Source: a virus
Strand: one strand, 5' to 3'
Length of the DNA: 64,000 nt
IMG/VR virus record: IMGVR_UViG_3300045988_127492
Coordinates: 64,001 to 128,000 of that record
Program-made: the position numbers and the translations under genes
The notes under the pieces: generated by a model
The model's database searches: none
What the model saw: the letters and a program-made list of their open reading frames with translations, nothing else
Told to the model about the DNA's origin: nothing
In this document: positions 5,989 through 39,689 of the stretch, in pieces
Position numbering within the stretch: the first letter of the stretch is position 1
How the letters are laid out: every line of letters starts with the position of its first letter

Positions 5989-5997
5989 TTATCTCAC

Positions 5998-16442: not shown

Positions 16443-16878
16443 TTAATTCATCCCTTACTCTCATAAGTATCTTCCCAAGCCTATTTTCTCCAACTCCATC
16501 TACGGTTCCCCAAATGGCATCTCCCCAAGTATTACCCTCTTCCAGGTGCTCGTCACCTGTGGCAAGTAATTTTTCCTTAAGGTCTGGATTCTGAGTAAAT
16601 TTAGCCAGTACGATTTCATACATTACTTTATCTTTTACTTCTTCCCAATCTGATCTCAAATCAATCTTTCTACCTACTGCCTTTGCCTCTGATGGACTAG
16701 CTTGAGAAAATAACTGGAATTTTAGTCTACGATTTTTTGTTTTCTGTGCTTGAAAAGCTGCTTCATTATTTGTATAGTCCCATCCGTTATAACTTACCGG
16801 TGCCATATAAAAGTTACTTAAAAAGTAATAATCTCCAGTAAAACTATTAATCATTCTTTCTCCTTCCCTAATAATCAC
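16432..16878 (-). CDS. NADAR (YbiA/DUF1768) domain protein
   Basis: 148 aa. FLSNFY..., NNEAAFQAQK and GDAIWG signature blocks. Confidence 0.75.
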   Translation of the reverse strand: MIIREGERMINSFTGDYYFLSNFYMAPVSYNGWDYTNNEAAFQAQKTKNRRLKFQLFSQASPSEAKAVGRKIDLRSDWEEVKDKVMYEIVLAKFTQNPDLKEKLLATGDEHLEEGNTWGDAIWGTVDGVGENRLGKILMRVRDELNEV

Positions 16879-18033: not shown

Positions 18034-18671
18034 TAGTCTCTCCCCTCATCAATATCAAGCCCAAAGTTTTTAAACAGTTCTGTCATACCTCCCACATAAC
18101 CGGAACCTAATGCCTGGAATTTGAATCCATCTCCGTAACGGTATAATTTACCCATTTCTACTGCATTCAATTTTTCAAAGTTTTCATTCTCAGACAGATC
18201 ATATTCATACTTATCACCATCTGGATTGTCGTAATCACAAATTGTCATAACTGCATTGGAGACCATTCCAAAATTCTGCATACGCTGTAAGGCCCTAAAA
18301 ATTGTTAAGCAGATAGTAAATTCTGTTTTATCTTTCGGGAAAGTATCGGCATGCACAATGAAATATTCGTCATAATGCTTTCCATTGAAAATCATTCCCT
18401 GAGAATCGTCACCAGTTTTATTGTCTCCTGAATAATCTACCCAGGGATATGCAGAGCCATCTTCATAGGTTTTATAGTTTACTAAATCTTCTGGGTATAC
18501 TACTTTGCGACTTGAATCTGTTAAAAATCCATTGATATCAAAGTCAATGTCTGCTTCACCAGCATAACGGTTCTGATCCCAATTGACTCCAATAAAGAAA
18601 TTCTTAATGCCTGTGCCATCTTCTTTTACCATACTAATTTTCTGATTTTTGCTCATGTTGATTACTGCCAT
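18033..18671 (-). CDS. TerD-family stress protein
   Basis: 212 aa. INMSKNQKISM..., GVNWDQ, DIDFDINGFL: the acidic Ca-binding-type TerD pattern. Confidence 0.65.
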   Translation of the reverse strand: MAVINMSKNQKISMVKEDGTGIKNFFIGVNWDQNRYAGEADIDFDINGFLTDSSRKVVYPEDLVNYKTYEDGSAYPWVDYSGDNKTGDDSQGMIFNGKHYDEYFIVHADTFPKDKTEFTICLTIFRALQRMQNFGMVSNAVMTICDYDNPDGDKYEYDLSENENFEKLNAVEMGKLYRYGDGFKFQALGSGYVGGMTELFKNFGLDIDEGRD

Positions 18672-18688
18672 ATTTCTTTATCTCCTTT

Positions 18689-19456
18689 TTATTTATTATT
18701 CAGCCAGTCTTTATACTGACGAAGAATCTCTGTATATAACTGTTCATCAGACATTTTATTCATGTCTTTTACTGCTGTAAAACCGGTGTTGTCATGTTTT
18801 CTACCTTTCATATTGTCAAGGGATTTTAAATAACCAAAATCTTCATCTCCAATTCCTATGAACTGCACGAAGATGTTGTACTCTGAAAGCTCTTTAATAA
18901 CTGCATTGGTGGCAAAAGTATCACTGTTTTCACCATCTGTAATAAAGATGATAAATGCTGGAATCTCACTTGGCTCAATATCTTTATAATATGTAACCAT
19001 TTCTTTCAATACAGGAGCATAATTAGTACCACCCATATACATATGAGCTTTTTTCATAACATTTTTAACATAACTACTATAATTATCAGCGTTAGCAGCT
19101 TTTAAGCGCTCTGCTCCATTTGAGAACAGCCAACTCTCAAGTTCTCCATTATCGTCAAATCTTAGAGCAATAGGCAACAAACGAGAAATGGTTTCCTGTA
19201 CAGATCCATTATCATACAGCCAATCCATACTTCCTGAATAATCCATTGCAAGAGCTACTCTAGCCGTATGTTTTGTCATATCAATCTTGCTTCCCTTAGA
19301 CATATCAATAAGTACTTTGCCAAGATTTTCATTGTGCTTAGACATATCAATTGTCTGTAACTTTTCTTCATATACAGGTTGCGGAGTTACAGCAGAAGAT
19401 AACTCTACTGCTGCTTTCTCATCTTTTTTTCCGAATAGTTTTCCCAAAAATCCCAT
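18689..19456 (-). CDS. vWA-domain protein (TerF/TerY-associated type)
   Basis: 255 aa. MIDAS motif ALAMDYSGSM and ITDGEN. Adjacent to TerD. Confidence 0.65.
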   Translation of the reverse strand: MGFLGKLFGKKDEKAAVELSSAVTPQPVYEEKLQTIDMSKHNENLGKVLIDMSKGSKIDMTKHTARVALAMDYSGSMDWLYDNGSVQETISRLLPIALRFDDNGELESWLFSNGAERLKAANADNYSSYVKNVMKKAHMYMGGTNYAPVLKEMVTYYKDIEPSEIPAFIIFITDGENSDTFATNAVIKELSEYNIFVQFIGIGDEDFGYLKSLDNMKGRKHDNTGFTAVKDMNKMSDEQLYTEILRQYKDWLNNK

Positions 19457-19457
19457 T

Positions 19458-22085
19458 TTAGTTACTTCCTTTCTTACAAATTGCTTTTCTAGTCCAATCT
19501 ACAGGCACAACCATAAATGCTGTCACTAAGACTACAATCCACTGTTTAGCATCCATTGGAGTTGTCTGTACTAGATTTCCTACAAAGTTACACAAAACTA
19601 CAGTCATTGCAAAAATACCCAATGCGATATATACAAATAATTTGTTATTTTTAATTCCTTTGAAAAGATTCATACTATCTGTTCTAATAGTGAATCCATT
19701 AAATACTGCCATTAAACACAATAAAGCGAATCTCGCTGTCATAGCCGAAAGTTTTGTTGCAAACATATTTCCAACTGGACCAAATGTAATTACACCAAAT
19801 AAAGCAATAAATACAATTGAACTTAATGCAATTCTTCCTTTCGCTCCACGGATAAATAATCCGGATCCTTTCATGATAGGCTCTTCATTCATATATTCCT
19901 CTTTTGGCGGTTCCCCACCAAAGCTTAATGAGTTAAGTGAATCCATGATGATATTTACAATAAGAATCTGAACTGCTGCTAAGAGAGCTGATCCGCCAGA
20001 AATAATTGGAAATACCATACTTAAGATCAACAATGAAATATTGATAGGTAACTGGAATTCAAGGAACATCATAATGTTATGCATAAATGTTCTACCAAGT
20101 TCGACTGCCTTTACCACACTTGCAAAATTATTGTCTGTCAAAACAATATCTGCTGCTTCTTTTGCTACATCAGATCCGTCTTGCATTCCAAAGCCTACAT
20201 CTGCTTTCTTTAGTGCAGGAGCATCGTTCACACCGTCACCTGTCATTGCTACAGACATTCCAATTTCTTGTGCTAATGTTACAAGGCGAAGCTTCGTATT
20301 CGGTGAGCATCTGGAAATTACTCTTAACTGTGGAATAATCTCTTTTACCTTTTCATCTGACATTGCCTCAAACTCATCATTGGTAACTGCTAAGTCTCCA
20401 GGCTTATAAATTCCAGCTTCCATAGCAACAGCCTTAGCAGTCTCCATGCAATCGCCAGTAATTTCAATTACCTGAATTCCAGCTTTATGAGCAATTTTTA
20501 CTGCTTCTGGAACTTCATTCCTAACCGGGTCAACAACTCCAATGACTCCAAGGAGATTCATTTCATCGGGGAGACCATCATCAGTTTTATCTGAGATAGT
20601 CAATGCAATACATCTCATTGCCTTCTCTGTTAATCCTTTAATATGGCTCTTTAAAGCTTTTCTTTTTTCTTCTGTCAGCTCAGTTACAATGCCATCATTA
20701 TCAAGATAAAATTTACACTTCTCAATTAATTTCTCTGGTGCGCCTTTATAAACAGTAAAATCATTTGCTCCATTATTTAAAGTAACTGCAGAGAATTTAT
20801 TTTCACTACTAAATGGAACACGTTTCTTCATGATAGCTTTATTCTGTATTTTTTGTGCATCTTCAGGAGAAAGCATATCAAGTACTGCTCGATCAATTGA
20901 ATTACCACCAGTGATATTTCCGTTAGAATCGAACACTGCACTATTATTCATGCAGATATTTAAATCAATTAGCTCGTTGAGCGGACTTTCCTTATTAAAA
21001 ATATCCTGACAGTTACCGTTAATCATAACTGTAGAAGTCATTTCACCTGTTGTGAGAGTTCCTGTCTTATCTGTGCAAATTAAATTAACATATGCTAATT
21101 CAGGAATTTTACCAGTATTCTTTGCAAGAATATTGAATTTTTCCATTGTTGATACATTTTGTTTAGTGACAAGTTTTACAATGAGTGGTAAGCCTTCTGG
21201 TACAGCAGCAACAATAATTGTCAATGCATTTGAGACATTCTGTGCTACTTTCTGAATACTTTCAAGAATACTTCCTGAGAAATACTGATTTAAGCTTCCA
21301 GCATTTAAGATACCTGTAATTGTCATAATTACAAATGCTAATGCTGCCGCAATTGTTCCCCATTTTGAAATAAAATCACACAAATGATCCAGAGCAATAT
21401 CAAGAGCTGTCTTAGGTGGTTCTAAAGTCTGCATTTTGACAAGAGTATCACCATTAACTGTATTAACACCAACATCTGTAACAATCATTTTTCCTTCACC
21501 AGACATAATAACTGTTCCTGCAAAGAGAGAACACTGGTCCGTATATGCAGTAGTTGATGTTGTTTTAACATGCTTATAATCAATACTAGGAATCTTTCTA
21601 CATTCTTTTGTTTCTCCATTGATAGCGGCATTATTAACAGAAATTTCCCCTTCAACAATAAAACCATCTGCAAAAATCTCTTGTCCAGTTCTCAATAGAA
21701 CTAAATCACCTACTACCAGATCATCTTTATTAATTGTCTGTATGCTTCCGTCTCGGACAACATCACAATATCTAACTGCCGTTTTTGCTCTTAGTTCTGC
21801 TGCAGATTTCTGTACACCTAGACCTGTCTTAATAGCAATTCCAGTAACAATAGCCAAAACCACTATAATCATCACAGGCTCAGAAAGAGACATTACTCCC
21901 ATAGCTCCTAAAACTAACTGGAATAAAGCAATTATTATTAGAATCATAGTAATTGGTTCAGTTAATGCTTCCTTAGCAAAATGATACCATTTTTTCAATT
22001 CAGACTCCGGAAGCTTATTACTTCCATATGTAGCCCTGCTAACCTCTACTTCGTTACTTTTTAATCCATTAAATTTCATTTTCAA
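19458..22085 (-). CDS. P-type ATPase, type II Ca2+-transporting
   Basis: 875 aa. Motifs CTDKTGTLT, PEGLP, KGAPE, DPVRNE, TGDCMETA and TGDGVNDAPALKKADVG. N-terminal cation-ATPase domain and about 10 hydrophobic segments. Confidence 0.85.
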   Translation of the reverse strand: MKMKFNGLKSNEVEVSRATYGSNKLPESELKKWYHFAKEALTEPITMILIIIALFQLVLGAMGVMSLSEPVMIIVVLAIVTGIAIKTGLGVQKSAAELRAKTAVRYCDVVRDGSIQTINKDDLVVGDLVLLRTGQEIFADGFIVEGEISVNNAAINGETKECRKIPSIDYKHVKTTSTTAYTDQCSLFAGTVIMSGEGKMIVTDVGVNTVNGDTLVKMQTLEPPKTALDIALDHLCDFISKWGTIAAALAFVIMTITGILNAGSLNQYFSGSILESIQKVAQNVSNALTIIVAAVPEGLPLIVKLVTKQNVSTMEKFNILAKNTGKIPELAYVNLICTDKTGTLTTGEMTSTVMINGNCQDIFNKESPLNELIDLNICMNNSAVFDSNGNITGGNSIDRAVLDMLSPEDAQKIQNKAIMKKRVPFSSENKFSAVTLNNGANDFTVYKGAPEKLIEKCKFYLDNDGIVTELTEEKRKALKSHIKGLTEKAMRCIALTISDKTDDGLPDEMNLLGVIGVVDPVRNEVPEAVKIAHKAGIQVIEITGDCMETAKAVAMEAGIYKPGDLAVTNDEFEAMSDEKVKEIIPQLRVISRCSPNTKLRLVTLAQEIGMSVAMTGDGVNDAPALKKADVGFGMQDGSDVAKEAADIVLTDNNFASVVKAVELGRTFMHNIMMFLEFQLPINISLLILSMVFPIISGGSALLAAVQILIVNIIMDSLNSLSFGGEPPKEEYMNEEPIMKGSGLFIRGAKGRIALSSIVFIALFGVITFGPVGNMFATKLSAMTARFALLCLMAVFNGFTIRTDSMNLFKGIKNNKLFVYIALGIFAMTVVLCNFVGNLVQTTPMDAKQWIVVLVTAFMVVPVDWTRKAICKKGSN

Positions 22086-23116
22086 ATTTCTCCTAAAATA
22101 ATTCTTTCATTGACAGATGCCACAAACGCTTCTATGGATTTATAATCTGGTTTATCTGGTAACGCAGTATTTTCCGCATCATATTTAAGTCTTTTCTCTA
22201 ACTCATCTATCATTTCAAAAAACTCTGGAATAGGCTGATAATTTTCATCCAAATATTTTCCATTGCGTAAATCCATAAGAAGTTCATGATCATCTTCTCT
22301 ATATGTAATAATTTTTCCTTTCTCAAGAATGTCAAAACACATAAGATACAGTCTCACTAAATGACACATATGCTTTCCCAACTTATTGTGATCTATAGCA
22401 TGTTTGTTTCTCTTCCCAATTTTAGAATAGTCTTTAACAATACTTTTCATTTCAGCCCACATTCCTTGATAATCATTCAAAGGATAGTGCTTTAGGTGAA
22501 TATCCATAAACACTTCTGTTTCATAGTCTTCCTGAACACCTTTATCTACATAAAGCTTTATTGCATCTTCTGGAAAATTGAAATACTTTTCAGGGAAAGT
22601 ATAAAAAGCATTCATAATACTATTAAGAACATGCTGCATTCTTTCTTCTTGTCCCAATTTCCTGGCAGCTTTATTATCGAGCCTTCTTAGCTGACTTGTA
22701 GCATAGCCTCCAAAAGAATAGATCGCTTTCTTAGATAAAAACATTTCAGCATTATCAAGAAGTTCTTGACCAATTGGATGAATATAAAGATAATGTTCTG
22801 GCTTCAATCCTATCAGCTCAATTGTGTTTGGGTTGCAGTTTGACAATAGAGTTATCAATTTATTAAAAGAATAGATTGTTGTATCTGTTGTTTCTTCCGT
22901 TACCTGATCAAAATTATGTGTAGGAATCAGGATTTCTTCTCTTTTATTTAAAGCACAACCCCTAATATCCAGATCGGAGTTTTCTGTATCTGTACCATAA
23001 GCATGAGACCCACCTAAGCCTAATAGAATTATGTTACTCCCCAGGTGCTCGTTCGCTCTTAAGAAATCATAGTGTTCACTTTTCAACAATTTTTTGATTT
23101 TCTCTATTTTCATCAA
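22082..23116 (-). CDS. Pol-beta-fold nucleotidyltransferase, RlaP-like
   Basis: 344 aa. LGLGGSHAYGTDTENSDLDIRG (GS...SDxD) nucleotidyltransferase signature. Confidence 0.55.
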   Translation of the reverse strand: MMKIEKIKKLLKSEHYDFLRANEHLGSNIILLGLGGSHAYGTDTENSDLDIRGCALNKREEILIPTHNFDQVTEETTDTTIYSFNKLITLLSNCNPNTIELIGLKPEHYLYIHPIGQELLDNAEMFLSKKAIYSFGGYATSQLRRLDNKAARKLGQEERMQHVLNSIMNAFYTFPEKYFNFPEDAIKLYVDKGVQEDYETEVFMDIHLKHYPLNDYQGMWAEMKSIVKDYSKIGKRNKHAIDHNKLGKHMCHLVRLYLMCFDILEKGKIITYREDDHELLMDLRNGKYLDENYQPIPEFFEMIDELEKRLKYDAENTALPDKPDYKSIEAFVASVNERIILGEI

Positions 23117-23603: not shown

Positions 23604-23987
23604 TCAGATAATCTGTAAGTTTTCGTCACCAATAAGCCATGCAGAATCTAAAATAAAATTTTCATATGGATCACCATTGTCGTTCCAGAATTCATCTGAT
23701 CCAACTTCCCAATCACCCAATGTTCCAGCATTAAAGTTACCGTATAAATAATCTGCCACATATTCTAAAAACGCATCTACAGCCTTATCATAATCTTCTT
23801 TTCTTATTGACTCTTCTACATCTGGCTCAAGATCAATCCATTTATGCTGCTCAATCAAAAAAGATTTAGCATTGTCTCTTACTTTCAACAGTGAGTTTTT
23901 AATGTCTGTCAATGTTGCATCTTTCTTTTTTGCAATGATGTAACTTGAAGATGAGCTATTAGTAACAAACCCTCTTCTTATTTTCAT
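23604..23987 (-). CDS. MKIRxGFVTNSSSSSF-family protein (copy 2)
   Basis: 127 aa. N-terminus MKIRRGFVTNSSSSSYIIAKKK is shared with four other ORFs; the remainder is unrelated and acidic. Confidence 0.6.
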   Translation of the reverse strand: MKIRRGFVTNSSSSSYIIAKKKDATLTDIKNSLLKVRDNAKSFLIEQHKWIDLEPDVEESIRKEDYDKAVDAFLEYVADYLYGNFNAGTLGDWEVGSDEFWNDNGDPYENFILDSAWLIGDENLQII

Positions 23988-24584: not shown

Positions 24585-25730
24585 TTACATATCCTCCATT
24601 GAATAAATTACTCTCTCTAAGCTTCTTTTGGATTTAAAGCATTTCTTAAGTAAACACCACATAATTGCCTTTTCAACATCGTCTTCATCTTCCCAATCAT
24701 TTAAGACTACAGAAGTTTGAGTTCCATCTTTAAAGCCAACAGTTGTTCTAATCTTTTCTGTAGAAATATCTCTTGTTCTTCCTACAAATGCAATATCGTC
24801 TTTCGATAAGGTTTTACAAACGTGTTTATCAGTTTTGTTTTTAGGTACAATATATACATCAATACCCAAAGCATCTTTAATCTGACGTTCGCAACTTCTA
24901 AGCTCCTCTCCAATAGTATGTTCTTTTTCTTTTTTCGCTACTACTTTTTCAAGTGCTTTTAAGATTTCATCTGGTGACATGTTCATATCTGTTTTCTCCT
25001 CTTTATAATCAAAATATGGCATTGGTTTCAGTTTAAACTCATTCTTCTCATGTAAACGATCAATTCGTCTTTTTACTTCTGGATCGTCACATACTCCTGT
25101 ACGAATATATCTATCTAATACTGCATAGGTGAATCCAAAGTTATCTTCATCTGACTTGCCGCATAAACCATCTGCTGGCGTTTTCTCTACATATTTTTTA
25201 GGCAATCTTAAATAATGACCAATTGCTACAACTTCCTTTTTTACAAAAGGAGCTAATGGAGCTAAATCTCCTGCTCCGTCACCATCACGAGTAAAATATC
25301 CAATATATATTTCACTAAGATTTCCAGTATTGACTACTCTTCCATTATGAGACTGTGCTACCCCGCGTAAAACAGCCATTCTTAATCTTGGAGCAAGATT
25401 AATCAGGGTCTGATCTGATACATCCAGTGCAAGATCAATCTGATCAATGATATCATCATAAGCATATCCAATATTAATAGTAAGATAATCAATACCTAAT
25501 ACGTGCTGGCAGATATCATACGCCACATCTATATCATCCTGTTTGTAATTTGGCATAATTACTCCGAGGACTTTGCTTGGTCCGACAGCTTCCACACATA
25601 ACTTAGCAGCTACTAAAGAGTCAACACCGCCGGAAATACCTACTATAAAGTTACATTCTGGGCCATTTTTCTCTCTCCAATCTCTGATCCACTGAATGCA
25701 ATCATTTGTTGCTTTTTCTACATTAAACAT
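24585..25730 (-). CDS. nadE: NH3-dependent NAD+ synthetase with an extra C-terminal domain of about 140 aa
   Basis: 381 aa. PP-loop GISGGVDS plus a NadE-like core ending near residue 240; the rest has no recognisable motif. Confidence 0.75.
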   Translation of the reverse strand: MFNVEKATNDCIQWIRDWREKNGPECNFIVGISGGVDSLVAAKLCVEAVGPSKVLGVIMPNYKQDDIDVAYDICQHVLGIDYLTINIGYAYDDIIDQIDLALDVSDQTLINLAPRLRMAVLRGVAQSHNGRVVNTGNLSEIYIGYFTRDGDGAGDLAPLAPFVKKEVVAIGHYLRLPKKYVEKTPADGLCGKSDEDNFGFTYAVLDRYIRTGVCDDPEVKRRIDRLHEKNEFKLKPMPYFDYKEEKTDMNMSPDEILKALEKVVAKKEKEHTIGEELRSCERQIKDALGIDVYIVPKNKTDKHVCKTLSKDDIAFVGRTRDISTEKIRTTVGFKDGTQTSVVLNDWEDEDDVEKAIMWCLLKKCFKSKRSLERVIYSMEDM

Positions 25731-26223
25731 TCTGTTCCTCCAATTTCCATAATTCTACTTCAAAGTTACACAATTCTTCTTCTATAATTTTGTAAATCAC
25801 ATCCCAATCTGCGCCTCCTCTTCCGCAGCCTATTTTATATGGGAGTGCAATGCTTGTCTTGTGAGGCCTATTATCAACATCAAACCAATAAATAGGTATC
25901 TGTTGCCGAATGAAATTTAATCCCTCTCGAAAAGCTTTAAGATCTGTATATTGCTTACCATCATATCCATACTTGTCTTGTGCAAATAAAGACAATATTA
26001 CTTGATTTTTCCATCTGATAAAGTACTCGTCATATGTTCCAAGAAGTAATTCTGGATTAAACTCACGTAATTTACAGACGTTTCTATAATGTATATAAAT
26101 ACTTTCGTCATAATCTCTTAATGCTTTAGCAACACCAGTATTCATTTCTCCTTGGCAGTTAACTTGATGAATTATATAATCGGTCTTTGCATCTACAATG
26201 TTGCCTTCAATAATTCTAATCAT
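25723..26223 (-). CDS. macrodomain protein (ADP-ribose binding/hydrolase)
   Basis: 166 aa. IIEGNIVDAKTDYIIHQVNCQGEMNTGVAKAL and GCGRGGADW blocks. Overlaps the nadE start by 8 nt. Confidence 0.7.
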   Translation of the reverse strand: MIRIIEGNIVDAKTDYIIHQVNCQGEMNTGVAKALRDYDESIYIHYRNVCKLREFNPELLLGTYDEYFIRWKNQVILSLFAQDKYGYDGKQYTDLKAFREGLNFIRQQIPIYWFDVDNRPHKTSIALPYKIGCGRGGADWDVIYKIIEEELCNFEVELWKLEEQNV

Positions 26224-26764
26224 TTTTTACCTCTTTATAATTTGCATCTCCTACGTCATACATACTAAAATGGAAATCCATATAATCTTTATCATCTATA
26301 TCTTCTTTGTCAAAGAAATCTTCAATCTGCTTTCCATCTGCAATTACAATATAGAGATTTCCATCTTTGCTTATGTACGTTTTTTGAGCTTCGTTTGTAT
26401 AATCACTATCACCTGTCCAATCTGTATAATACTCATAAGATTCTACCGGTTCGTCAGGATGATATTCGTCTTCTAGTTCAAACTTAATTTTTGTAATGTC
26501 ATTATACATAGACAATGTATCAAATATCATTTCTGAAAAACCTTCTGGTACCGCAAAACAACCAAACTGATTTCTCTTTTTATTTGCATCTTTATGAATT
26601 TCAATGGCAATAATGTTAGCTGACACCATTTTACAAATAGCGTTACATGCTATTCTTCTTACAGAAGTGTCTATATCCTCTACTATAAAATCTCCTATGT
26701 ATTTACCATCAATGGTCACATAATCACAATTTTCTAAAATGAAGGTAATTGATTTTAGTCTCAT
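26216..26764 (-). CDS. hypothetical protein
   Basis: Start moved to MRLKSITF at 26764 (SD AGGAGA). The longer track start overlaps the upstream gene. Confidence 0.5.
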   Translation of the reverse strand: MRLKSITFILENCDYVTIDGKYIGDFIVEDIDTSVRRIACNAICKMVSANIIAIEIHKDANKKRNQFGCFAVPEGFSEMIFDTLSMYNDITKIKFELEDEYHPDEPVESYEYYTDWTGDSDYTNEAQKTYISKDGNLYIVIADGKQIEDFFDKEDIDDKDYMDFHFSMYDVGDANYKEVKND

Positions 26765-26772
26765 TTTTTCTC

Positions 26773-27186
26773 CTATAAATCCTGGAACGTAAACTTCTCG
26801 CCACAAGAGCAAATCACTTCTCCAATAGTTCCAATTGATGTAGGTGTGAAGCACCATGTAAGAGATCCACCTATGCAGCCATGTCCCATTGCTCTCTGTT
26901 TAGAAGTTTTAAGTCCATGTTTTTCTGCATCATGTTTCAACTGCCACTCTCTAATTTTCTTTTCTTCCTTTTCAGAAATTGGGAATCCTCTGTACAGATC
27001 TTCTTTTGCTTTTTTCAATTCAGCTTCCATTCTCTGCATTTCAGAATCTTTATAATGCTCATCTTTGAGATTTTTATTTTCTTCACTCAGATACTTAATT
27101 CGTCTTTCATAAGAATCTGCCTTATCAATAATTCCCTGACAAAGTTCTGAAACCGAATCAGTAAAATATGTTTTTCTCATTTTCAT
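26773..27186 (-). CDS. hypothetical coiled-coil protein with Cys/His-rich C-terminus
   Basis: 137 aa. Confidence 0.5.
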   Translation of the reverse strand: MKMRKTYFTDSVSELCQGIIDKADSYERRIKYLSEENKNLKDEHYKDSEMQRMEAELKKAKEDLYRGFPISEKEEKKIREWQLKHDAEKHGLKTSKQRAMGHGCIGGSLTWCFTPTSIGTIGEVICSCGEKFTFQDL

Positions 27187-27187
27187 C

Positions 27188-28654
27188 TTAATGTTCTCCG
27201 TTTAATCTGTTTCTGATTTTTTCAAAACACTCATCATCATATGTTCCCCCATTAATGAACACTGTCCTTAATGCATCATCATATACAAGACTGTCATATC
27301 CATCTGCACACTGTAGTTCTCCATTTTCATCATAATAGATATAACAACATCCTTTATGAGATTTCTTTAAATGACTTGTATCAGTCTTCGGATCCTTATA
27401 AATCATGACTGGTTGTCCATTAACTTCTCCGAACGTAGCTTTCATAGCAATTCCAAACATATCTCTAGTTACAACGACCATACGTCCATCAGGTTCTACG
27501 ACCGCTGAAAAACAAAAAGCTCCCACACCAAAAACAATATTGTTCGCGGCGAATCCTTTCTTCTCAAGTTCCTCCCATACCTGCCTTACATTATTAAGAG
27601 TACAGCCATCTCCATAGATAATTCCAATATGAGGGTCCAGTACTTTATATCCTTTGCTATTCACTGATCCTTCAAATGTGTTCCAGAGTTTTTCAATTGT
27701 CTTTACTGAAATTTCTACCATATTTCCACTGTCCGGACGAACCAGAAGCTTACCGTTATGCTGCATAATTTCTTCTTTACAAGCTGGAAGAATGTTGTCA
27801 ATCATATTCCAGTAATCATATGTATCAGATACCATACTGAATGATGCATTAGGATAAAGCTCTGTAAGCAGTCTCTTCACAAATGTAATTTCATCTCCGT
27901 CTACGGCGAAGTTTGAAGCCATAACTGAGTGTTCTGTTGAGATTGCTCCAATTCCAATACCTTCTGTATAACAATCAGCATCGTAATATTTGTCCAAATA
28001 ATCAATTGCTGGGATTGTGCTGGTTTTATCGAATGATAATAACCATGCGGCAGAACATCTTTTAGCTTCTTCAATACAGGACATTCCTCTCATTCCAAAG
28101 TCAGAGCAAGCTAAATTGGGTTTTAAAGAGTCATCACAAGTCTTTTTGTAATAGAAATTAGCCAACTCTCTGTACATATGTCCGATTGTCGCATGAGCAC
28201 ATGGCTTCCAGAGTTCTACCTGCAGGATACATTCAATCCACTGTACAACCCATGCAAAGTCTGGATGTGTATTTGTGATCTCGATACACGGTACCCCCAT
28301 CGGAACCAGTGTTCCCTCCGGTAATGCGCGGATTTGAATTGGAAGATATCCTAATTCGTGGAGTTTAAGGATTGGAGAAATATCGTAATTTCTTTCCCCT
28401 AACTGGATATCCATACTATATGTATAGAGTTCCTGAATTTCGTCAGTATTCAACTTGAAAAAATCCCTTTTGAAATATTTAACAAGATACTCTTTAATAA
28501 AAGCCTGCAGTCCGAAGAAAACCATATGATCTTGCTCCTTTAACATTGATCTTCTCGGAGTCCAATAAGAGACTAACTTCGTAAGTCCCTTCGGATAGAT
28601 TTTATTATGGATTTGCTTATAAGTGTCACTTAATAAAATTGCAAGTGTATTCAT
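27188..28654 (-). CDS. NAMPT-family phosphoribosyltransferase (NadV-like; candidate Namat of NARP1)
   Basis: 488 aa. N-terminal LSDTYKQIH, YWTPR, and length and overall pattern of the nicotinamide phosphoribosyltransferase family. Confidence 0.75.
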   Translation of the reverse strand: MNTLAILLSDTYKQIHNKIYPKGLTKLVSYWTPRRSMLKEQDHMVFFGLQAFIKEYLVKYFKRDFFKLNTDEIQELYTYSMDIQLGERNYDISPILKLHELGYLPIQIRALPEGTLVPMGVPCIEITNTHPDFAWVVQWIECILQVELWKPCAHATIGHMYRELANFYYKKTCDDSLKPNLACSDFGMRGMSCIEEAKRCSAAWLLSFDKTSTIPAIDYLDKYYDADCYTEGIGIGAISTEHSVMASNFAVDGDEITFVKRLLTELYPNASFSMVSDTYDYWNMIDNILPACKEEIMQHNGKLLVRPDSGNMVEISVKTIEKLWNTFEGSVNSKGYKVLDPHIGIIYGDGCTLNNVRQVWEELEKKGFAANNIVFGVGAFCFSAVVEPDGRMVVVTRDMFGIAMKATFGEVNGQPVMIYKDPKTDTSHLKKSHKGCCYIYYDENGELQCADGYDSLVYDDALRTVFINGGTYDDECFEKIRNRLNGEH

Positions 28655-29043
28655 TATTTTTTATTCTCCTCTTTGTTGTTTACAACTTTATCAATCTGGT
28701 CAGTAATGTAATCAATAACATCCTTGCCGGTTTTCCCAACTGCTTGAATGTTATCTGTCGTTACATTATCTAATACAATCATTGTATACATTGTATCTTT
28801 CGATGGAGTTACTGCAAAAAGTAAACTACTAACGCAAAGCCAGATAACTGATTTCTTTAAATACTTTTTACATGCAACAACAGGTTCCTCATCCTGTTCA
28901 TAATCCATAGAACTAAGAAACCAAATAATTGATAATACCACCGCTGCACATCCAAGTAAAAATAATACAACACTAAATAATCCCTTTAAATCATCAAATA
29001 AATCAATTAAATAAATCAACCATGGGTTAATAATCGGTTTCAT
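28654..29043 (-). CDS. membrane protein (2 TM)
   Basis: 129 aa. Overlapping start/stop with neighbours. Confidence 0.5.
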   Translation of the reverse strand: MKPIINPWLIYLIDLFDDLKGLFSVVLFLLGCAAVVLSIIWFLSSMDYEQDEEPVVACKKYLKKSVIWLCVSSLLFAVTPSKDTMYTMIVLDNVTTDNIQAVGKTGKDVIDYITDQIDKVVNNKEENKK

Positions 29044-29056
29044 ATTTTTATCTCCT

Positions 29057-29446
29057 TTATAACTTTCCTATCAAACAGCTCCAAGTAAAACCAATCTGAA
29101 ACATATGAGTTATTTGATCTTGAATTAAATTAATTTTCTTTTTATTGGCTTTCATATCATCTACTAACATATGTATCAATAAATTCATAACCAATAATAA
29201 AGGATTCCATTTACCACCAATAATCATAAGCGCAATTGTTGGTGGTAACATAATCATAAATGACCAACTAAAGCTATGCATAAACAATGCTGCTAAATAA
29301 TCATATTTATATAATTTTCCTGGTGCATTCTTTTCCCACCATGATTTTTGCTTTGCAGATGCTAACCATCCTTGCAAGTAATAATCATCTACAATATGAC
29401 AGAAAATCATAGTAAATAAGATAAATATTTTATATGCAATATTCAT
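29057..29446 (-). CDS. DUF3307-like integral membrane protein
   Basis: 129 aa. CHIVDDYYLQ (HxxxDxxxQ) and a second HMLVDD motif. Confidence 0.4.
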   Translation of the reverse strand: MNIAYKIFILFTMIFCHIVDDYYLQGWLASAKQKSWWEKNAPGKLYKYDYLAALFMHSFSWSFMIMLPPTIALMIIGGKWNPLLLVMNLLIHMLVDDMKANKKKINLIQDQITHMFQIGFTWSCLIGKL

Positions 29447-30249
29447 TATCTAAACCTCTCAATCAGTTCAATCTTAGGACTTTCAAGATTTGTCAAAATC
29501 GTATCTGTCGTATAAATCTTCTCAATCAGTCCATTATTCTTCAGAAGCTCTCCATCATAAATAGTGTTTTCACAATGAGTAACATAGAGATAAATCTTAC
29601 CTACACCGGCCTCCTTTAGCTTTTTAGCACTATGATAAAAAGTACCGCCTCTGCTACAGATATCATCTACTATAAGGATATCTTTACCTGGGAGTTGATT
29701 AATTTCACCTGATAGATCAAGACCTTTGATTTCTCCTGTCTCCCAGTCTCTATTCTTAATACCAAACGCATATGGAAGATGTACCATGGAAGAATATCTC
29801 TTCATAGATCCTGCGTCTGGATAAAACATCATGAGATTATCACTCGCAATCTTCTTGACAGTAGCTTCAATCATTCGATTCGGTGACTCTACATGCACTT
29901 TATTAAATAACGCAACAGATACATCAGAGTGAGGATCTAAAACTTCTACCTTATTAAAATGCAATGAATTAATAATCTGAGCAAAATATTTTAAAGTAAA
30001 TAATTCGTTCTCATGCTTAACTCGATCCATACGAGCATCTGGGATATAAGGCATGTATAAACTAGGTACTACTCTATGGTCCCAACAATATCTAGCTATA
30101 TATTCAACTGCTGTTAACTCTTCCATTGATTCAAAGAACCATTCAATATTATCTCTACTCCATCCACCGATGGGTGGGAGATTCTTAAATAAGAATGTCC
30201 CATCCGGATATTTATCAAGTTTGATTTCTACACCGTTTAATTTAATCAT
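29446..30249 (-). CDS. short ribose-phosphate pyrophosphokinase-like enzyme (candidate Adps of NARP1)
   Basis: 267 aa. PRTase loop DILIVDDICSRGGTF and an N-terminal Prs-like half. Shorter than housekeeping Prs. Confidence 0.65.
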   Translation of the reverse strand: MIKLNGVEIKLDKYPDGTFLFKNLPPIGGWSRDNIEWFFESMEELTAVEYIARYCWDHRVVPSLYMPYIPDARMDRVKHENELFTLKYFAQIINSLHFNKVEVLDPHSDVSVALFNKVHVESPNRMIEATVKKIASDNLMMFYPDAGSMKRYSSMVHLPYAFGIKNRDWETGEIKGLDLSGEINQLPGKDILIVDDICSRGGTFYHSAKKLKEAGVGKIYLYVTHCENTIYDGELLKNNGLIEKIYTTDTILTNLESPKIELIERFR

Positions 30250-30604
30250 TCCAAATCTCCTTGTAATTTATTTCTCGCTGCTCAATGATGTTATTTCTTG
30301 TGAAAACAATCTCAAAATCTGAAATCTGTTTCGTTCCAACAAGCTGAAATTCATAAACTTTATATCCAAGTTTCTTCAGTTCAAGAACATCAGTAAGGCT
30401 GAACCAGTGTTTTAATGTTTCCTTTGATGGTGCTGCTGAGAACCACTGTTTCCCACCTTCTCTGTATAATTCACTATCTTCCATTGGCAGGTTTCTACTT
30501 AATCCTTCTGAGAGCTGGTCGAATACAGGATTCCATGTTCCATCAAAATTCCGCCACAGTCCATGTTTCTCAATTTGGTCTTCTACTCTATATCCGAAAA
30601 TCAT
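30242..30604 (-). CDS. hypothetical protein coupled to the Prs-like gene
   Basis: 120 aa; 8-nt overlap with the downstream gene. Confidence 0.5.
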   Translation of the reverse strand: MIFGYRVEDQIEKHGLWRNFDGTWNPVFDQLSEGLSRNLPMEDSELYREGGKQWFSAAPSKETLKHWFSLTDVLELKKLGYKVYEFQLVGTKQISDFEIVFTRNNIIEQREINYKEIWND

Positions 30605-30622
30605 TTCTTTTCTCCTATCACA

Positions 30623-31318
30623 CTAATCTGACAACTTTTCATTGTATTTTTCTTTTAGTTTTTCATAAGCGAGATGTGCTTCATATTCTGTTTCATATCT
30701 TCCACCATATATATTTTTACTATTGTGAACATATGTGACCTGCCATTTTCCATCTTTTAGTCTTGTTACACCTACATATCTTGATGTTGTTGTTAATTTT
30801 CTCCTGCCAAGCATTTCATCGAAATTAATTCTATTTGGTAAAAACATGCATGTCTCTATTGAGTATATTTTATTATTACTTCCAATATATGACATATCTT
30901 TATCTAATTGAATTTCTCCTTTTAAAAATTTTTGTTCATTATACCCTTTTATATTAGGGATATCTTTATAGAAATATTCAAAACACAACCATCTGTCGCA
31001 TACCCGTATTCCCTTCTCCCCGTACAATTTATATCCCTTATGATTTTTGTTGTAACATCTTTCAATCATAAATTTCCATAAATTAAATTCTTTCTTATGA
31101 TTGGATTTTTTTATATCGCCTTGACAGGCAACGCCATAATAAATAGGATAGTAAGGATCTCTTATTTCTCCATATATAACGCAAGATGCACATATATCTT
31201 TTTCATAATTAGTTAATAAAAATCTCACTCTATATTTCTGAGAATTATATCTTTTTATAATCTCATAATCTCCATATTTATTGGATTTTCTTATATCTCC
31301 AACTTTAATTTTACTCAT
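30623..31318 (-). CDS. AP2-domain DNA-binding protein, probable free-standing homing-endonuclease-like gene
   Basis: 231 aa. C-terminal RYVGVTRLKDGKWQVTY...YETEYEAHLAY (AP2 fold pattern) and WKFMIERCYN...YGEKGIRVCDRW block. Confidence 0.4.
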   Translation of the reverse strand: MSKIKVGDIRKSNKYGDYEIIKRYNSQKYRVRFLLTNYEKDICASCVIYGEIRDPYYPIYYGVACQGDIKKSNHKKEFNLWKFMIERCYNKNHKGYKLYGEKGIRVCDRWLCFEYFYKDIPNIKGYNEQKFLKGEIQLDKDMSYIGSNNKIYSIETCMFLPNRINFDEMLGRRKLTTTSRYVGVTRLKDGKWQVTYVHNSKNIYGGRYETEYEAHLAYEKLKEKYNEKLSD

Positions 31319-31877
31319 TTATGGCCTCAATCTGAAGTGATTTTAAAATTAACACCGTATTTTTATACATTTCTGTAGTAGTTGCAGCAGTACATTTTAA
31401 ATCAATAAATATATTTGCTTCTGGAAAAGCTGTTTTTAATAATACCAAATTAGTAATAACACATACATCCAAGCACAAACCACAAAGCTCTATGAAATAT
31501 TCGCCCTGAATTTCCTTATTTTCCGTTATAAATGGCTTTAAATATTCAATGAGTTCAAGAGATCCGAATGTATGTTTTAATATAGGTTTGTAATAACTGT
31601 ATCCTCTTAAACAATTGTAAATACTATCTTCAATTTGCCAACCATCTGAACTAACAATACAGTGCTTTATAGGTAATTTTTTACCTTCATTTGTCTCTAA
31701 GTAATCAGCATAATGAGTATCTTGTGTAGATATAATAATGCCATTATTTGATTTATACTCTTCAATTTTTTTCACTATATTTGGTACAACTGCCTGAGCT
31801 TCCGGTGTACCTAGCGAACCTGTCACAAAATCATTCTGCACATCAACTACAATCAGAACTTTCTTTTTACTTTCCAC
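31311..31877 (-). CDS. pncA: isochorismatase-family hydrolase, nicotinamidase-like
   Basis: 188 aa. VLIVVDVQNDF, KH and LCGLCLDVCV (catalytic D/K/C arrangement). Confidence 0.6.
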   Translation of the reverse strand: MESKKKVLIVVDVQNDFVTGSLGTPEAQAVVPNIVKKIEEYKSNNGIIISTQDTHYADYLETNEGKKLPIKHCIVSSDGWQIEDSIYNCLRGYSYYKPILKHTFGSLELIEYLKPFITENKEIQGEYFIELCGLCLDVCVITNLVLLKTAFPEANIFIDLKCTAATTTEMYKNTVLILKSLQIEAINE

Positions 31878-35944: not shown

Positions 35945-35976
35945 AGTTTTACAAAATGGTTTATATGTTAAAAATT
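35945..35976 (-). promoter_or_regulatory. Copy b of the conserved intergenic motif
   Basis: Sense AATTTTTAACATATAAACCATTTTGTAAAACT, ending 20 nt before the ATG of the AAA+ gene. Confidence 0.5.
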
Positions 35977-36880
35977 AGTGACCATTGACATCTGCTTCAT
36001 GTAATAACATTACATCTGAAAACATTTTGTCTCCGATCAATCGTTTATCTTTATTTCTTGCTCTTCTTGATTGAGCCCATGATAAATATGGATGCATATG
36101 ATAATAAATCAAATTAGCTATATAAAAGATATCAAACATATCTTTCCCCGTAGTTACATCAGAGAAATCGCAAGATGTCAAAAATTCATATGCTCCAACA
36201 CAATGATGCTGATAATAGTGACAGTAATCATCCTCTTCTCCTTTTTTATTGATTCTTGATTTAGTAAATAATTTTCCTATATCATGAACCCAAGCTGCAA
36301 CCCATAAATTAGAGTCTTCTGTTGGAACTCCTGCTGAAACCTTTTTCAGATGTCCGTAAAGAGTCAAGGTATGATGTGGATTTTCCTGATCAAAATCACG
36401 AGTCATATCTATTAAATCATTCAAATCTTTACAGTCATCCTGTACAACTCTGATTTCATTGAATCCTTCATGGCACATAGGCGGAGAAAACGTTTTTCTC
36501 ATTCTAGTAATTACTTCGTCAGGCACTGGAATTTCTCTTTTTAAATTATCTTCCAAACACTTTTCATATGTTTTTAAGAATACAACACAGGTTTTATAAA
36601 CTTGTTTACTAACCTGCTTTAAAAAATGCACTCTCCTTTTCTTTACTAAGTTAGTAGCATCATAGATAACTGAATGAGTTTTCAGATCTTCCAGTATCCT
36701 TCGATGTAACTCTTCAAATACTTTATTATTATCTGAATCATCAAAATTATCTCCGTACATTTCTCTTCTGAGTTTATCAGATGAATGTAGTATATACTCC
36801 GGATTAGCTTCTACATAGGCCTTAGCCCAAGTACTCTTACCAGAAGCAGGAAGTCCTACTAACATAATCAATTCATTCAT
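35975..36880 (-). CDS. P-loop polynucleotide-kinase-like domain fused to an HD phosphohydrolase
   Basis: 301 aa. GLPASGKST Walker A with a kinase-type N-half; C-half has WVHDIGK...HH...H of HD domains. Confidence 0.6.
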   Translation of the reverse strand: MNELIMLVGLPASGKSTWAKAYVEANPEYILHSSDKLRREMYGDNFDDSDNNKVFEELHRRILEDLKTHSVIYDATNLVKKRRVHFLKQVSKQVYKTCVVFLKTYEKCLEDNLKREIPVPDEVITRMRKTFSPPMCHEGFNEIRVVQDDCKDLNDLIDMTRDFDQENPHHTLTLYGHLKKVSAGVPTEDSNLWVAAWVHDIGKLFTKSRINKKGEEDDYCHYYQHHCVGAYEFLTSCDFSDVTTGKDMFDIFYIANLIYYHMHPYLSWAQSRRARNKDKRLIGDKMFSDVMLLHEADVNGH

Positions 36881-37627: not shown

Positions 37628-37656
37628 AGTATATCACAGTCATTTCATCTTGTCAA
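37628..37656 (-). promoter_or_regulatory. sigma70-type promoter P2 (TTGACA-17 nt-TATACT)
   Basis: -35 at 37651-37656 and -10 at 37628-37633. Motif copy d (37660-37680) is immediately upstream, overlapping the last codons of ligA. Confidence 0.6.
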
Positions 37657-39689
37657 CATGTTTTTACAAAATTGTTTATAAAATCTTTTTCTGAAATAAT
37701 CGGCACACCAAGCTGTGTAGCCTTTACATTTTTACTGCTCTTTGATGTTGTATCATTATTAATAAGGTAGCTAGTCTTTTTAGTCACAGAGCCTGTCACT
37801 TTGCCTCCCAGTGATTCTATCTTCTCTACCAACGCAACCCTATTGGTGAACTCAGTGAGTGTCCCAGTAATGCAGAACGTTTTTCCCTTTAAACTATCTT
37901 CTACAATTTGTTGAGGAATCTCTTCAAACTGAAATTCTGCTGCAAGTTCATTTATATATCTTTCATTTTCTTCAAAATAATTTTTTAGAGAAGATGCTTT
38001 CGCGAATCCAAAATCCTCCAGACATGTGAAATCATACTGAGAATTCATATCTTCAATGAAACTGTCAAAAGCTGTTTTTAATCCTTTTTCTCTTGCTCTT
38101 TTCTCTTCGATATTATTTAATTGTTTACTAACATTACGACCTATTAAAGGTATCGACAACCCATAAAGGAATTTAGGTAACGTTGTTTTACGGCATTTTT
38201 CTATTGATTCCAGAATTTTATCAACTTTCTTTGCACCTAATCCTTGTAGTGTCAGCAACATTTCTCTACAATTCTTTAAATAAAATAAATCTATTGGCCC
38301 TTTAATAAACTCTTTCTCTATTAAAAGATTCAAGGTAGATTTAGAAAGCCCAGTAATATCATGCGCTTCTTTACTTACAAAAGTACACAATTCACCAAGA
38401 AGTTTTCCCTTGCACTCAAGGTTCATACATTGAAGTTCCTCTGTTTCGTTCCCACCAATAACCTTTGTATGTCCACCACAAATAGGACATTTATCTGGAA
38501 CTGTAAACAAATTATTTTTGTTTCTAGTCAGGTTCTCCGCAATCTGCGGAATGATCATATTAGCTTTATATACAGTGATCGTATCCCCTACAGATAACTC
38601 ATAGCTTTTGAAAATACTTACATTGTGTAAACTAGCTCTCTCAACGATGGTATCATCTATCTCAACCGGATCAAACACTGCTACGGGTGTTAACTGACCA
38701 GTCTTTCCCATGCTCCATTCTACGTTTCTGATCACTGTTTCAAACTTATCATCTGCAAATTTATAAGCCAATTGAGAACGAACATGGTGTGATGTTTCTC
38801 CTAGGCTTTCGCCATAGGCAATATCATCATATGAAAATACGATTCCATCAATAGGAACATCTTTTTCTCTTGCAGTCTCTCTAAGGATTCTAATATCTTC
38901 TTCAATATTATCAACCTTTACCCAAGGAACCACTTCAAATCCAAGAAGTTCTAATATCTGCAGTCTTTTCATAAAGCTATTACCATCTATGCCGCGAACC
39001 GCCTTCCAAGCAACAAAATTAATTTTTCTTTCTTTTGTAATAGAGCTATCAAGCTGCCTGACGGAACCAGCAGCTAAGTTCCTAATATTCTTAATGCCGT
39101 TCTCCTTGATATATTTTTCTAATTCTTCACCAAAAAGACCTTTTCTTTCTCCTTCTTCTTTCAACTCAATGTCTTTCAGTTCTTTAAGATGAATGTATTG
39201 ATGAATTTCCATAATAGCTTCTCCATCTACTACCACCTCATCTTTATACGGAATTTCTTTCGGAAGATTTACAAAAGTGTTTACTGTATGTAAAACATCT
39301 TCGCCAATAACTCCATTACCTCTAGTCTCTGCTGCAACTAATTTACCATCTATATATTTTACTGAAATAGTAAGCCCATCCATTTTTAGCATAGCCAATC
39401 CAGGCAAACCATTCATAAAGTTTTCAACATCACTTATATCTTTTGTCTTGTCTAAAGACAGCATTGGATGATCGTGTTCAACTTTTTCCAACTCACTAAC
39501 TGTTTCTGAGCCAACACTAATAGTGGGACTGTTGGCTAAAATAATACCTGTAGCATGTTCAAGTTCTTTAAGTCGATCATATTTTTTATCATATTCATAA
39601 TTAGAAATTAGAGAAGTGTCTTCCATATAATATGCATGAGCATATATACTTAATTCTTCCACTAATTCACGCATTTCCTTTAAAAGCAC
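37653..39689 (-). CDS. ligA: NAD+-dependent DNA ligase
   Basis: 678 aa. Adenylation motif KMDGLT, Ia-domain YYMEDTSLISNYEYD, CxxC...C zinc finger (CPICGG...C...C), HhH region, C-terminal BRCT-like GKTFCITGTL. Confidence 0.9.
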   Translation of the reverse strand: MLLKEMRELVEELSIYAHAYYMEDTSLISNYEYDKKYDRLKELEHATGIILANSPTISVGSETVSELEKVEHDHPMLSLDKTKDISDVENFMNGLPGLAMLKMDGLTISVKYIDGKLVAAETRGNGVIGEDVLHTVNTFVNLPKEIPYKDEVVVDGEAIMEIHQYIHLKELKDIELKEEGERKGLFGEELEKYIKENGIKNIRNLAAGSVRQLDSSITKERKINFVAWKAVRGIDGNSFMKRLQILELLGFEVVPWVKVDNIEEDIRILRETAREKDVPIDGIVFSYDDIAYGESLGETSHHVRSQLAYKFADDKFETVIRNVEWSMGKTGQLTPVAVFDPVEIDDTIVERASLHNVSIFKSYELSVGDTITVYKANMIIPQIAENLTRNKNNLFTVPDKCPICGGHTKVIGGNETEELQCMNLECKGKLLGELCTFVSKEAHDITGLSKSTLNLLIEKEFIKGPIDLFYLKNCREMLLTLQGLGAKKVDKILESIEKCRKTTLPKFLYGLSIPLIGRNVSKQLNNIEEKRAREKGLKTAFDSFIEDMNSQYDFTCLEDFGFAKASSLKNYFEENERYINELAAEFQFEEIPQQIVEDSLKGKTFCITGTLTEFTNRVALVEKIESLGGKVTGSVTKKTSYLINNDTTSKSSKNVKATQLGVPIISEKDFINNFVKTC

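Follow-up and report, generated by a model that had tools for sequence, protein, structure and literature searches.

Three phage pathways that restore NAD+ are known. NARP1 combines the ADP-ribose (ADPR) pyrophosphokinase Adps with the transferase Namat and was described in Bacillus phage SpβL1, Bas63, and ICP1 (Osterman et al. 2024, bioRxiv 10.1101/2024.02.11.579819). Structures of the system have been reported (PMC12774641, PMC13586617), and Adps from ICP1 has been shown experimentally to make ADPR pyrophosphate (ADPR-PP) (PMC13586617). In Vibrio phage Gary, the system is extended to NARP1-AP, with the order Adps-Adpp-Namat, and this Adps-macro-Namat arrangement has been established experimentally as an ADPR-1''-phosphate phosphatase extension of NARP1 (bioRxiv 10.64898/2026.01.28.702374). 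NARP2 consists of NAMPT and a bifunctional nicotinamide mononucleotide (NMN) adenylyltransferase (NMNAT), as in phage KVP40, and NARP3 consists of PnuC and NadR, as in Bas30 (PMC13464706).

Here, we analyzed a 64,000-nucleotide stretch of viral DNA, positions 64,001 to 128,000 of the IMG/VR record IMGVR_UViG_3300045988_127492 (hereafter, the window), and found a tightly packed, co-directional block of minus-strand genes spanning 24585-31877 that probably encodes a variant of NARP1 NAD+ reconstitution routed through nicotinic acid. The block carries homologs of Adps and Namat together with a nicotinamidase, a macro-domain protein, and an NAD+ synthetase (NadE) (Table 1). An earlier note on this DNA covered 27188-30604 only, where it read a NAMPT-like and a Prs-like open reading frame (ORF) as a NARP1-type pair, and it missed the nicotinamidase, the macro-domain protein, and NadE of the same block. 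Its five ORFs were recovered at the coordinates and lengths it gave, all on the minus strand (488, 129, 129, 267, and 120 amino acids), with neighbors overlapping by 1-8 nt or lying 13 nt apart; the Prs-like ORF contains the phosphoribosyltransferase (PRTase) loop DILIVDDICSRGGTF, as it had noticed.

We assessed the family identity of the two core enzymes. Profile searches agreed with the family labels already proposed (NAMPT-like, Prs-like, and, for one of the membrane proteins, DUF3307-like). The best solved relatives of the transferase were the SpβL1 Namat structures (9w5w/9w5x) at 2e-114, versus 2e-56 or worse for the human and rodent NAMPT structures in the PDB. It differs from a bona fide NAMPT both in lying closer to Namat and in carrying Ser at the position of Asp219. 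After the 9w5x sequence was rebuilt from the alignment, 20 of the 20 published NAD-contact residues of SpβL1 Namat fell on the correct letters, indicating that 9w5x is SpβL1 Namat in native numbering. The PncB-type model TIGR01513 scored the transferase at 22.7 bits (cut-off, 297.4); the pocket Ser alone resembles NAPRT. The model PRK09198, named "nicotinate phosphoribosyltransferase", did match (462 bits; cut-off, 405), a result that we did not take as evidence on nicotinate versus nicotinamide.

The Prs-like protein grouped with validated Adps and not with true phosphoribosyl pyrophosphate (PRPP) synthases. It is 40.5% identical to ICP1 Adps over amino acids 64-225 (E = 7e-26), and true Prs structures matched at 3e-16 or worse. 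Both the Prs-like protein (92 bits) and ICP1 Adps (98 bits) fall below the 113-bit cut-off of the ribose-phosphate diphosphokinase model TIGR01251, and Prs equivalog models with cut-offs of at least 296 bits scored the former at no more than 67 bits, ICP1 Adps behaving likewise. The protein keeps K165, corresponding to the catalytic Lys185 of Adps, as well as R73, H107, D145, D195, and D196 (Arg87, His121, Asp161, Asp212, and Asp213 of Adps), and its donor loop, DDIC-SRGGTF, follows the DD[IL]C..GGTF pattern of the Adps proteins that adjoin canonical Namat genes. The Adps and Namat homologs share a strand and are separated by 792 bp. These comparisons support placing the pair in the Adps and Namat families of NARP1 rather than among bona fide Prs and NAMPT enzymes. 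The earlier proposal of a NARP1-type pair thus holds for family membership; it does not hold as a plain two-enzyme NARP1, given Ser212 and Ser239 of the transferase, the changes in its adenine clamp, and the genomic linkage to PncA and NadE described below.

The transferase carries two changes in its nicotinamide pocket. In every HMMER and MAFFT alignment, Ser212 aligned with Asp215 of SpβL1 Namat and Asp219 of human NAMPT, and Ser239 stands at SpβL1 Ala242. In SpβL1 Namat, Asp215 hydrogen-bonds the amide of nicotinamide, Ala242 lines the pocket, and the D215A mutant makes 8-fold less NAD+ (PMC12774641). The specificity of NAMPT is set by Asp219; in the passages of PMC4919578 and PMC7096376 that cite Khan 2006, D219S is recorded as a substrate-affinity switch and D219A as inactive. 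In human NAPRT, Ser214 occupies the structurally equivalent position (PMC4442680). Overall, the transferase retains 13 of the 20 NAD-contact residues of SpβL1 Namat. The changed contacts are D215S, A242S, R40M, S190G, A/S362G, S391A, and Y396V, and the kept Namat core consists of D13, Y15, F189, R192, R306, D308, G360, D361, F392, and T398-R399-D400. The catalytic His is also kept (TEHSVM).

Next, we examined the genomic neighborhoods of related transferases, using local hidden Markov models (HMMs) built from the NadE, PncA, Adps, and macro proteins of this clade. Three sets of loci were scanned: 67 IMG/VR loci found with the window transferase (set 1; 53-90% identity), 80 diverse Namat loci retrieved via a mixed alignment (set 2; 42-100% identity to ICP1 Namat), and 80 loci retrieved via an alignment of diverse non-acidic representatives (set 3). 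Three metagenome contigs and seven genome contigs were added, and some contigs recur between sets. Neither NadE nor PncA was found within ±10 kb in any of the 81 canonical loci, which have an acidic pocket residue (62 Asp, 19 Glu); nearly all of them do have Adps beside the transferase (about 74 of 80 canonical loci). In sets 1 and 3, the pocket position is always Ser or Ala, and position 239 is always Ser. Both NadE and PncA were present in 44 of 58 loci of set 1, the other 14 (and the loci with shorter Namat ORFs) ending at a contig edge on the relevant side, and in 75 of 83 loci of set 3 plus the three extra contigs, where five of the eight exceptions are on truncated contigs. Thus, among approximately 140 Ser/Ala loci, essentially every untruncated one encodes NadE and PncA.

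The two pocket positions also covary. When the best 150 representatives were taken from clusters built at 50% identity in 1.8 billion proteins, the combinations were (Asp, Ala) in 94, (Ala, Ser) in 28, and (Ser, Ser) in 19. In a neighbor-joining tree of 55 clusters at 70% identity, the 13 NadE/PncA-linked clusters fell into one clade, which splits into a Ser subclade, including the window transferase, and an Ala subclade. The genes of this clade often form a compact operon, though their order varies: one such operon (L053) reads PncA-Adps-Namat-NadE with overlapping gene ends, three loci (L049, L164, and L173) place a macro gene between Namat and NadE, and MT835544 (L002) has the nicotinamidase at the other end of the block with the five-gene set intact. 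On this phylogeny, the linkage to NadE and PncA goes back to a single ancient event and has survived deep divergence and changes in gene order. Related modules were located on a Ruminococcus sp. AM36-2AA scaffold, on contigs from Lachnospiraceae, Acutalibacteraceae, and Clostridium metagenome-assembled genomes, and on many viral contigs of 100-260 kb. Large phages of gut Lachnospiraceae widely carry the predicted module, which is found in environmental phages as well.

Nicotinamidases are marked by an Asp-Lys-Cys triad and an Asp/His/His metal site. In the nicotinamidase of the block, the triad (D12/K101/C139) and the metal ligands (D53/H55/H72) are invariant across 100 unique orthologs. Its best solved relative is the Pyrococcus horikoshii pyrazinamidase/nicotinamidase (1ilw/1im5; 1.2e-8), in an alignment that extends across the catalytic Asp as well as the Asp and His residues that bind the metal; the equivalog model PRK11609 gave only 28 bits. 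NadE scored 161 bits with TIGR00552 (cut-off, 63.65), and its SGGxDS PP-loop is invariant in 101 orthologs. As it has no glutaminase domain, it is of the NH3-dependent type. Its C-terminal extension of 137 amino acids (24585-24995) has no family match and is confined to the 16 closest loci, orthologs outside of which are about 250 amino acids long.

The macro protein matched a DarG-type macro model at 6e-13, below its cut-off, and PDB macro domains at 2e-5. Homologs occur in 499 deposited phage records, SPbeta-like and PAK_P-like phages that carry NARP1 among them, and the macro HMM of the clade also picks up macro genes within canonical NARP1 operons, for instance one (L121) with the order Adps-macro-Namat. 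In the window, the macro gene is three genes away from the transferase, but in some relatives, L049 and L173 among them, the two are neighbors. A macro gene of this NARP1-associated kind is present in most members of the Ser/Ala clade, which points to ADPR as the input.

The earlier note had found no NMNAT signature, and our motif test, limited to (H/T)xGH in an NMNAT-like context, likewise returned none in six frames of the 64-kb window. Nor was a motif of the NMNAT/NadD type (GxFxPxHxGH-type) found within ±10 kb in any of the ~140 Ser/Ala loci, so that a route free of adenylyltransferase fits the gene content. The phage also encodes an NAD-dependent DNA ligase with adenylation, OB, and BRCT domains (37653-39689), indicating that it needs NAD+.

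A NADAR-domain protein is encoded at 16432-16878 (PF08719, 6e-30). The NADAR family is linked to NAD and ADP-ribose metabolism, and this gene, going by its domain, shows a second investment of the phage in ADP-ribose biology.

A nicotinic-acid variant of NARP1 with four to five enzymes most likely explains what the sequences show: the family memberships, the substituted pocket, the preserved catalytic residues, and the strict linkage in the genomes. Its inputs would be ADPR and nicotinamide, the fragments left by NAD-cleaving defenses. The macro protein would convert ADPR-1''-phosphate to ADPR where needed, and Adps would convert ADPR and ATP to ADPR-PP and AMP. The nicotinamidase would hydrolyze nicotinamide to nicotinic acid and NH3, and the Ser-pocket transferase would then join ADPR-PP and nicotinic acid into nicotinic acid adenine dinucleotide (NaAD), releasing PPi, with no adenylyltransferase involved. 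Finally, the phage NadE would form NAD+ from NaAD, ATP, and NH3, and the ammonia may be recycled from the nicotinamidase step. We infer every substrate, every product, and the anti-defense role in this scheme from sequence and genomic context.

The proposed route shares features with each of the described systems. As in NARP1, the Adps and Namat homologs lie side by side on one strand, the Adps catalytic residues and donor loop and the Namat core are kept, and the likely input is ADPR. It differs from NARP1 in both pocket positions (Asp215 to Ser and Ala242 to Ser), in the adenine clamp (Arg40 of the SCL to Met, a 10-residue insertion in the SCH, and loss of Tyr396), in the nicotinamidase and NadE that always accompany the module here and occur in none of the 81 canonical loci, and in the proposed product of the transferase, which would be NaAD rather than NAD+. 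With NARP1-AP it has in common a macro protein of the "phosphatase" family phrog_335 in the same block and homologous macro genes inside canonical NARP1 operons; the differences are the place of the macro gene, which here is three genes downstream of the transferase, where we took a place within two genes as the mark of NARP1-AP, and the addition of PncA and NadE. The Preiss-Handler pathway (PncA, PncB/NAPRT, NadD, and NadE) likewise has a nicotinamidase, NadE, a nicotinate-type pocket Ser, and NaAD as the penultimate compound. In the window, however, NadD was not found, the transferase belongs to the NAMPT/Namat family and not to PncB, and the probable ribosyl donor is ADPR-PP instead of PRPP, so that nicotinic acid mononucleotide (NaMN) would be bypassed. 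NARP2 and NARP3 are similar in being phage-encoded and in restoring NAD+ from pyridine precursors, but they proceed via NMN and without ADPR, and no NMNAT, NadR, or PnuC was found in the window.

The preference of Namat for ADPR-PP comes from its adenine clamp. The SCH motif of the transferase reads GAFCFS-AVVEPDGRMV-VVTRD, in comparison with GSFTYQYNTRD in SpβL1 Namat; the aromatic residue at position 3 is kept and position 7 is Val. The SCL stacking residue of Namat (third in the loop; Arg, Lys, or Tyr) is replaced by Met37, which aligns with Arg40, in the Ser subclade of the window, and the Ala subclade keeps both Arg40 and Phe392 of the clamp. Use of ADPR-PP instead of PRPP is consequently less certain in the Ser subclade than in the Ala subclade. 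About ten non-acidic representatives have no SCH insertion, so that the pocket change and the insertion are separable. Six Asp-type Namat genes (L113, L124, L127, L130, L135, and L137) have a different, 7-residue insertion (GA[VI]xxxA) at the same SCH site, which marks it as a recurrent insertion point; two of these six have an ORF resembling the 120-residue protein of the block directly upstream.

One alternative is an ordinary NARP1, with or without the associated phosphatase, in which ADPR and nicotinamide are turned straight into NAD+ and in which the nicotinamidase and NadE serve as independent auxiliaries that boost host Preiss-Handler salvage in parallel. The Adps/Namat family membership agrees with this, as do the conservation of most catalytic-core residues of the transferase and the tolerance of Namat to some pocket mutation, D215A keeping about one-eighth of the activity. 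We nevertheless regard it as unlikely: Asp or Glu occupies the pocket position in all 81 canonical loci and in no NadE/PncA-linked clade member, the second pocket change covaries with the first, a nicotinamidase would destroy the transferase's own substrate, and parallel salvage needs NAPRT and NadD, which are not encoded nearby. It is also improbable that the block encodes a phage Preiss-Handler salvage, in which the Prs-like enzyme makes PRPP, the transferase makes NaMN, host NadD adenylylates it, and the phage NadE completes the synthesis, because the Prs-like protein behaves like validated Adps with respect to the ribose-phosphate diphosphokinase cut-off and has the Adps donor-loop pattern, no NadD/NMNAT-like gene accompanies any of the ~140 loci, the NARP1-type macro gene of most members makes sense only with ADPR as the feedstock, and the Ala subclade retains Arg40 and Phe392. 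This salvage would nonetheless account for the NAPRT-like pocket, for the loss of Arg40 and Tyr396 from the clamp in the window's subclade, and for the presence of a nicotinamidase and NadE, both enzymes of that pathway, and Namat does retain NMN-forming activity with PRPP in vitro (PMC12774641). Finally, the block might provide general metabolic support, as auxiliary metabolic genes that raise NAD+ for the ligase and other enzymes with no role against defenses. In favor of this are the NAD-dependent DNA ligase and the many nucleic-acid repair enzymes of the phage; yet ADPR and ADPR-1''-phosphate are products of NADase defenses, and the homologous NARP1 and NARP1-AP operons are experimentally anti-defense. 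We consider such a purpose very unlikely, and it concerns purpose and not mechanism, being compatible with the proposed chemistry.

Several points weigh against the nicotinic-acid route itself. The specificity switch by D219S is known to us through secondary citations only, and the Ala found at 212 in half of the clade cannot hydrogen-bond a carboxylate; the loss of negative charge, and not the gain of Ser, may be what matters at this position. The Arg40-to-Met and Tyr396-to-Val changes and the 10-residue insertion alter the adenine clamp in the window's Ser subclade. As the Ser/Ala clade is monophyletic, the linkage counts as one retained evolutionary event rather than as many independent ones. 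The macro protein had no phmmer match to Poa1p (6LFQ) and is set apart from the transferase by its position here. Removing and then re-adding the amide costs an extra ATP without a proven benefit.

On balance, we lean toward a fourth phage pathway of NAD+ reconstitution, in which an enzyme derived from Namat would make NaAD directly, served by a dedicated nicotinamidase and an NH3-dependent NadE. We know of no adenylyltransferase-independent route to NaAD in any organism. The papers searched describe NARP1, NARP1-AP, NARP2, NARP3, and RyDEP, and none of them links NARP1 or ADPR-PP to NaAD, nicotinic acid, a nicotinamidase, or NadE as a phage pathway, the exception being a generic pathway figure in the NARP3 paper; the nicotinic-acid NARP1 route thus appears to be undescribed and is predicted here from gene content and residue patterns. 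If the prediction is correct, nicotinate ADP-ribosyl transfer would be a new enzyme activity, a four- to five-gene route would join the known phage pathways, and NARP1 would have diversified in the pyridine that it uses. Candidate reasons for spending extra ATP to pass through NaAD include an irreversible pull on the pathway, hosts that are fast at deamidating nicotinamide, and a bacterial counter-measure against nicotinamide. The two pocket positions would also offer an annotation rule, with Asp/Glu plus Ala on one side and Ser/Ala plus Ser on the other, for genes that are abundant in human-gut viromes and are all currently labelled NAMPT or Prs.

The features of the block are listed in Table 1. 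The window has a GC content of approximately 34%, is coded almost entirely on the minus strand, and contains replication and repair genes of phage type, with a tRNA cluster immediately upstream of the block. Promoter and terminator scans of the block gave the same counts as shuffled sequence and were therefore uninformative. In a DNA-level search of deposited phages, the sole match covered 11%, over the DUF3307 gene.

Table 1 Genes of the predicted NAD+ reconstitution block, with positions in the window
Feature	Position	Strand	Family matches and remarks
Nicotinamidase, PncA-type isochorismatase-fold amidase, 188 amino acids	31311-31877	-	PF00857 7.5e-14
HNH homing-type endonuclease	30623-31318	-	phrog_2081 3e-41 and other HNH phrogs
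Soluble accessory protein of 120 amino acids, function unknown	30242-30604	-	phrog_23161 2e-14; 8-nt overlap with Adps start
Adps-family (putative) ADP-ribose pyrophosphokinase (Prs-like), 267 amino acids	29446-30249	-	phrog_619 2e-69; weak Pribosyl_synth and Pribosyltran
DUF3307 helical membrane protein, 129 amino acids	29057-29446	-	PF11750 5e-5 (just at Pfam cut-off); phrog_2470
Small membrane protein, 129 amino acids	28654-29043	-	phrog_3878 9e-19
Namat-family transferase, 488 amino acids	27188-28654	-	PF04095 4e-28; NAMPT_N 3e-9; phrog_448 2e-160
ORF of unknown function between transferase and macro gene, 137 amino acids	26773-27186	-	
ORF of unknown function between transferase and macro gene, 213 amino acids	26216-26857	-	phrog_2349 5e-20
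Macro-domain protein, candidate Adpp (ADPR-1''-phosphate phosphatase)	25723-26223	-	phrog_335 "phosphatase" 1e-35
NH3-dependent NAD+ synthetase (NadE)	24585-25730	-	PF02540 3e-46

The earlier note had also drawn attention to the two membrane proteins between the enzymes. Their position is as it described, but their presence varies among close relatives, and they do not belong to the conserved module. Distant relatives that retain the enzymes lack both them and the 120-residue ORF, and the spacer between Adps and Namat ranges from 0 to ~1750 bp among relatives, with differing small genes inside. The DUF3307 gene occurs in about a dozen related loci at 96-98% identity, and its product is 98% identical to a chromosomal protein cluster of Blautia wexlerae found on at least 1000 contigs of up to 2.4 Mb. 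Such identity indicates that the gene was recently shared, is host-like, and offers a clue to the host; we class it as a host-like accessory gene (moron) outside the conserved module. Its AlphaFold2 (AF2) model (five helices; pLDDT 83.8) matched no PDB structure, PnuC included. The phrog_3878 membrane protein is present in most close relatives at ~45% identity, where the flanking enzymes are 85-95% identical, and its gene is missing from distant relatives in which Adps and Namat abut; it is a fast-evolving occupant of the variable spacer. A conserved role for the membrane proteins as a pyridine transporter was rejected, the DUF3307 gene being sporadic and the phrog_3878 gene missing from distant operons.

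The 120-residue ORF is sporadic as well, occurring in only 7 related loci. It has 72 homologs and a precomputed Pfam family (PF26820), and weak matches to its HMM lie between Adps and Namat in two canonical loci (L127 and L135). Its AF2 model (pLDDT 88.7) matched no solved structure at E<0.1. We considered whether it is an anti-Thoeris protein of the RyR/RyDEP type or another known one, and rejected this as it had no such match in Pfam, among PDB sequences, or by fold. The family has an invariant Tyr5-Arg6 in strand 1, WFSAAPS in strand 2, and [D/E]-[F/Y]-Glu98 at the start of strand 5, an order of residues that recalls the R-S-E motif of ADP-ribosyltransferases and serves as a lead only. The sole matches of the predicted model at a template modeling score of ~0.4 were the toxins LT-A, CT-A1, ParT, and TreTu, at low probability.

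None of the 67 related loci has a counterpart of the HNH gene, which is, by this distribution, an insertion rather than a part of the pathway. Close loci carry copies of the ORFs at 26216-27186 with 70-93% identity; distant loci have none. Judged by their occurrence, the two membrane genes, the 120-residue ORF, and the HNH gene are all lineage-specific inserts, none of which is needed to explain the module, and the membrane genes are incidental to it.

Several relatives show further variation. Several close relatives have a transferase fusion, with an added C-terminal domain of ~158 amino acids that contains a HAD-type DVDGV motif, and one cluster of such fused proteins has 2,406 member sequences; the cases noted are L011, L012, L017, and L019-L022, whose Namat ORFs have 646-649 amino acids, and the protein clusters P0002-P0013. 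The window transferase stops at 27188, without this domain. Many Namat/NAMPT relatives (P0198-P0346) have 550-1100 amino acids, and their matches to the query fall into two to four separate stretches, with splits near residues 233-255 and 310-330, a pattern suggestive of inteins or of other large insertions that recur at certain sites. On three contigs of 238-261 kb (L150-L152), an ORF of 215 amino acids with a faint radical-SAM match lies between the nicotinamidase and Adps (8499-9146 in L150), and a Gad2-family gene and IS605-type TnpB genes are found near the module.

Finally, other features of the window were recorded. A TerD-domain protein (18033-18671) next to an 875-residue P-type cation ATPase (19458-22085) forms unusual phage cargo in the region 17284-22085. 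An RNA-repair-like set at 10428-12481, 22082-23116, and 35975-36880 comprises an RNA ligase with a PHA02142 OB domain, an RlaP nucleotidyltransferase, and an AAA_33 kinase plus HD domain protein. Paralogous ORFs at 23604-23987, 48646-49428, and 50286-51025 share the start motif MK(I/L)R(K/R/T/N)GFVTNSSSSS(F/Y). Tandem small paralogous ORFs of ~80-100 amino acids occupy 55487-60586 of the window, with a "Y/K-VGD-V-V" start, and 1028-6810 of MT835544, with a C-terminal "C-C-SLL".

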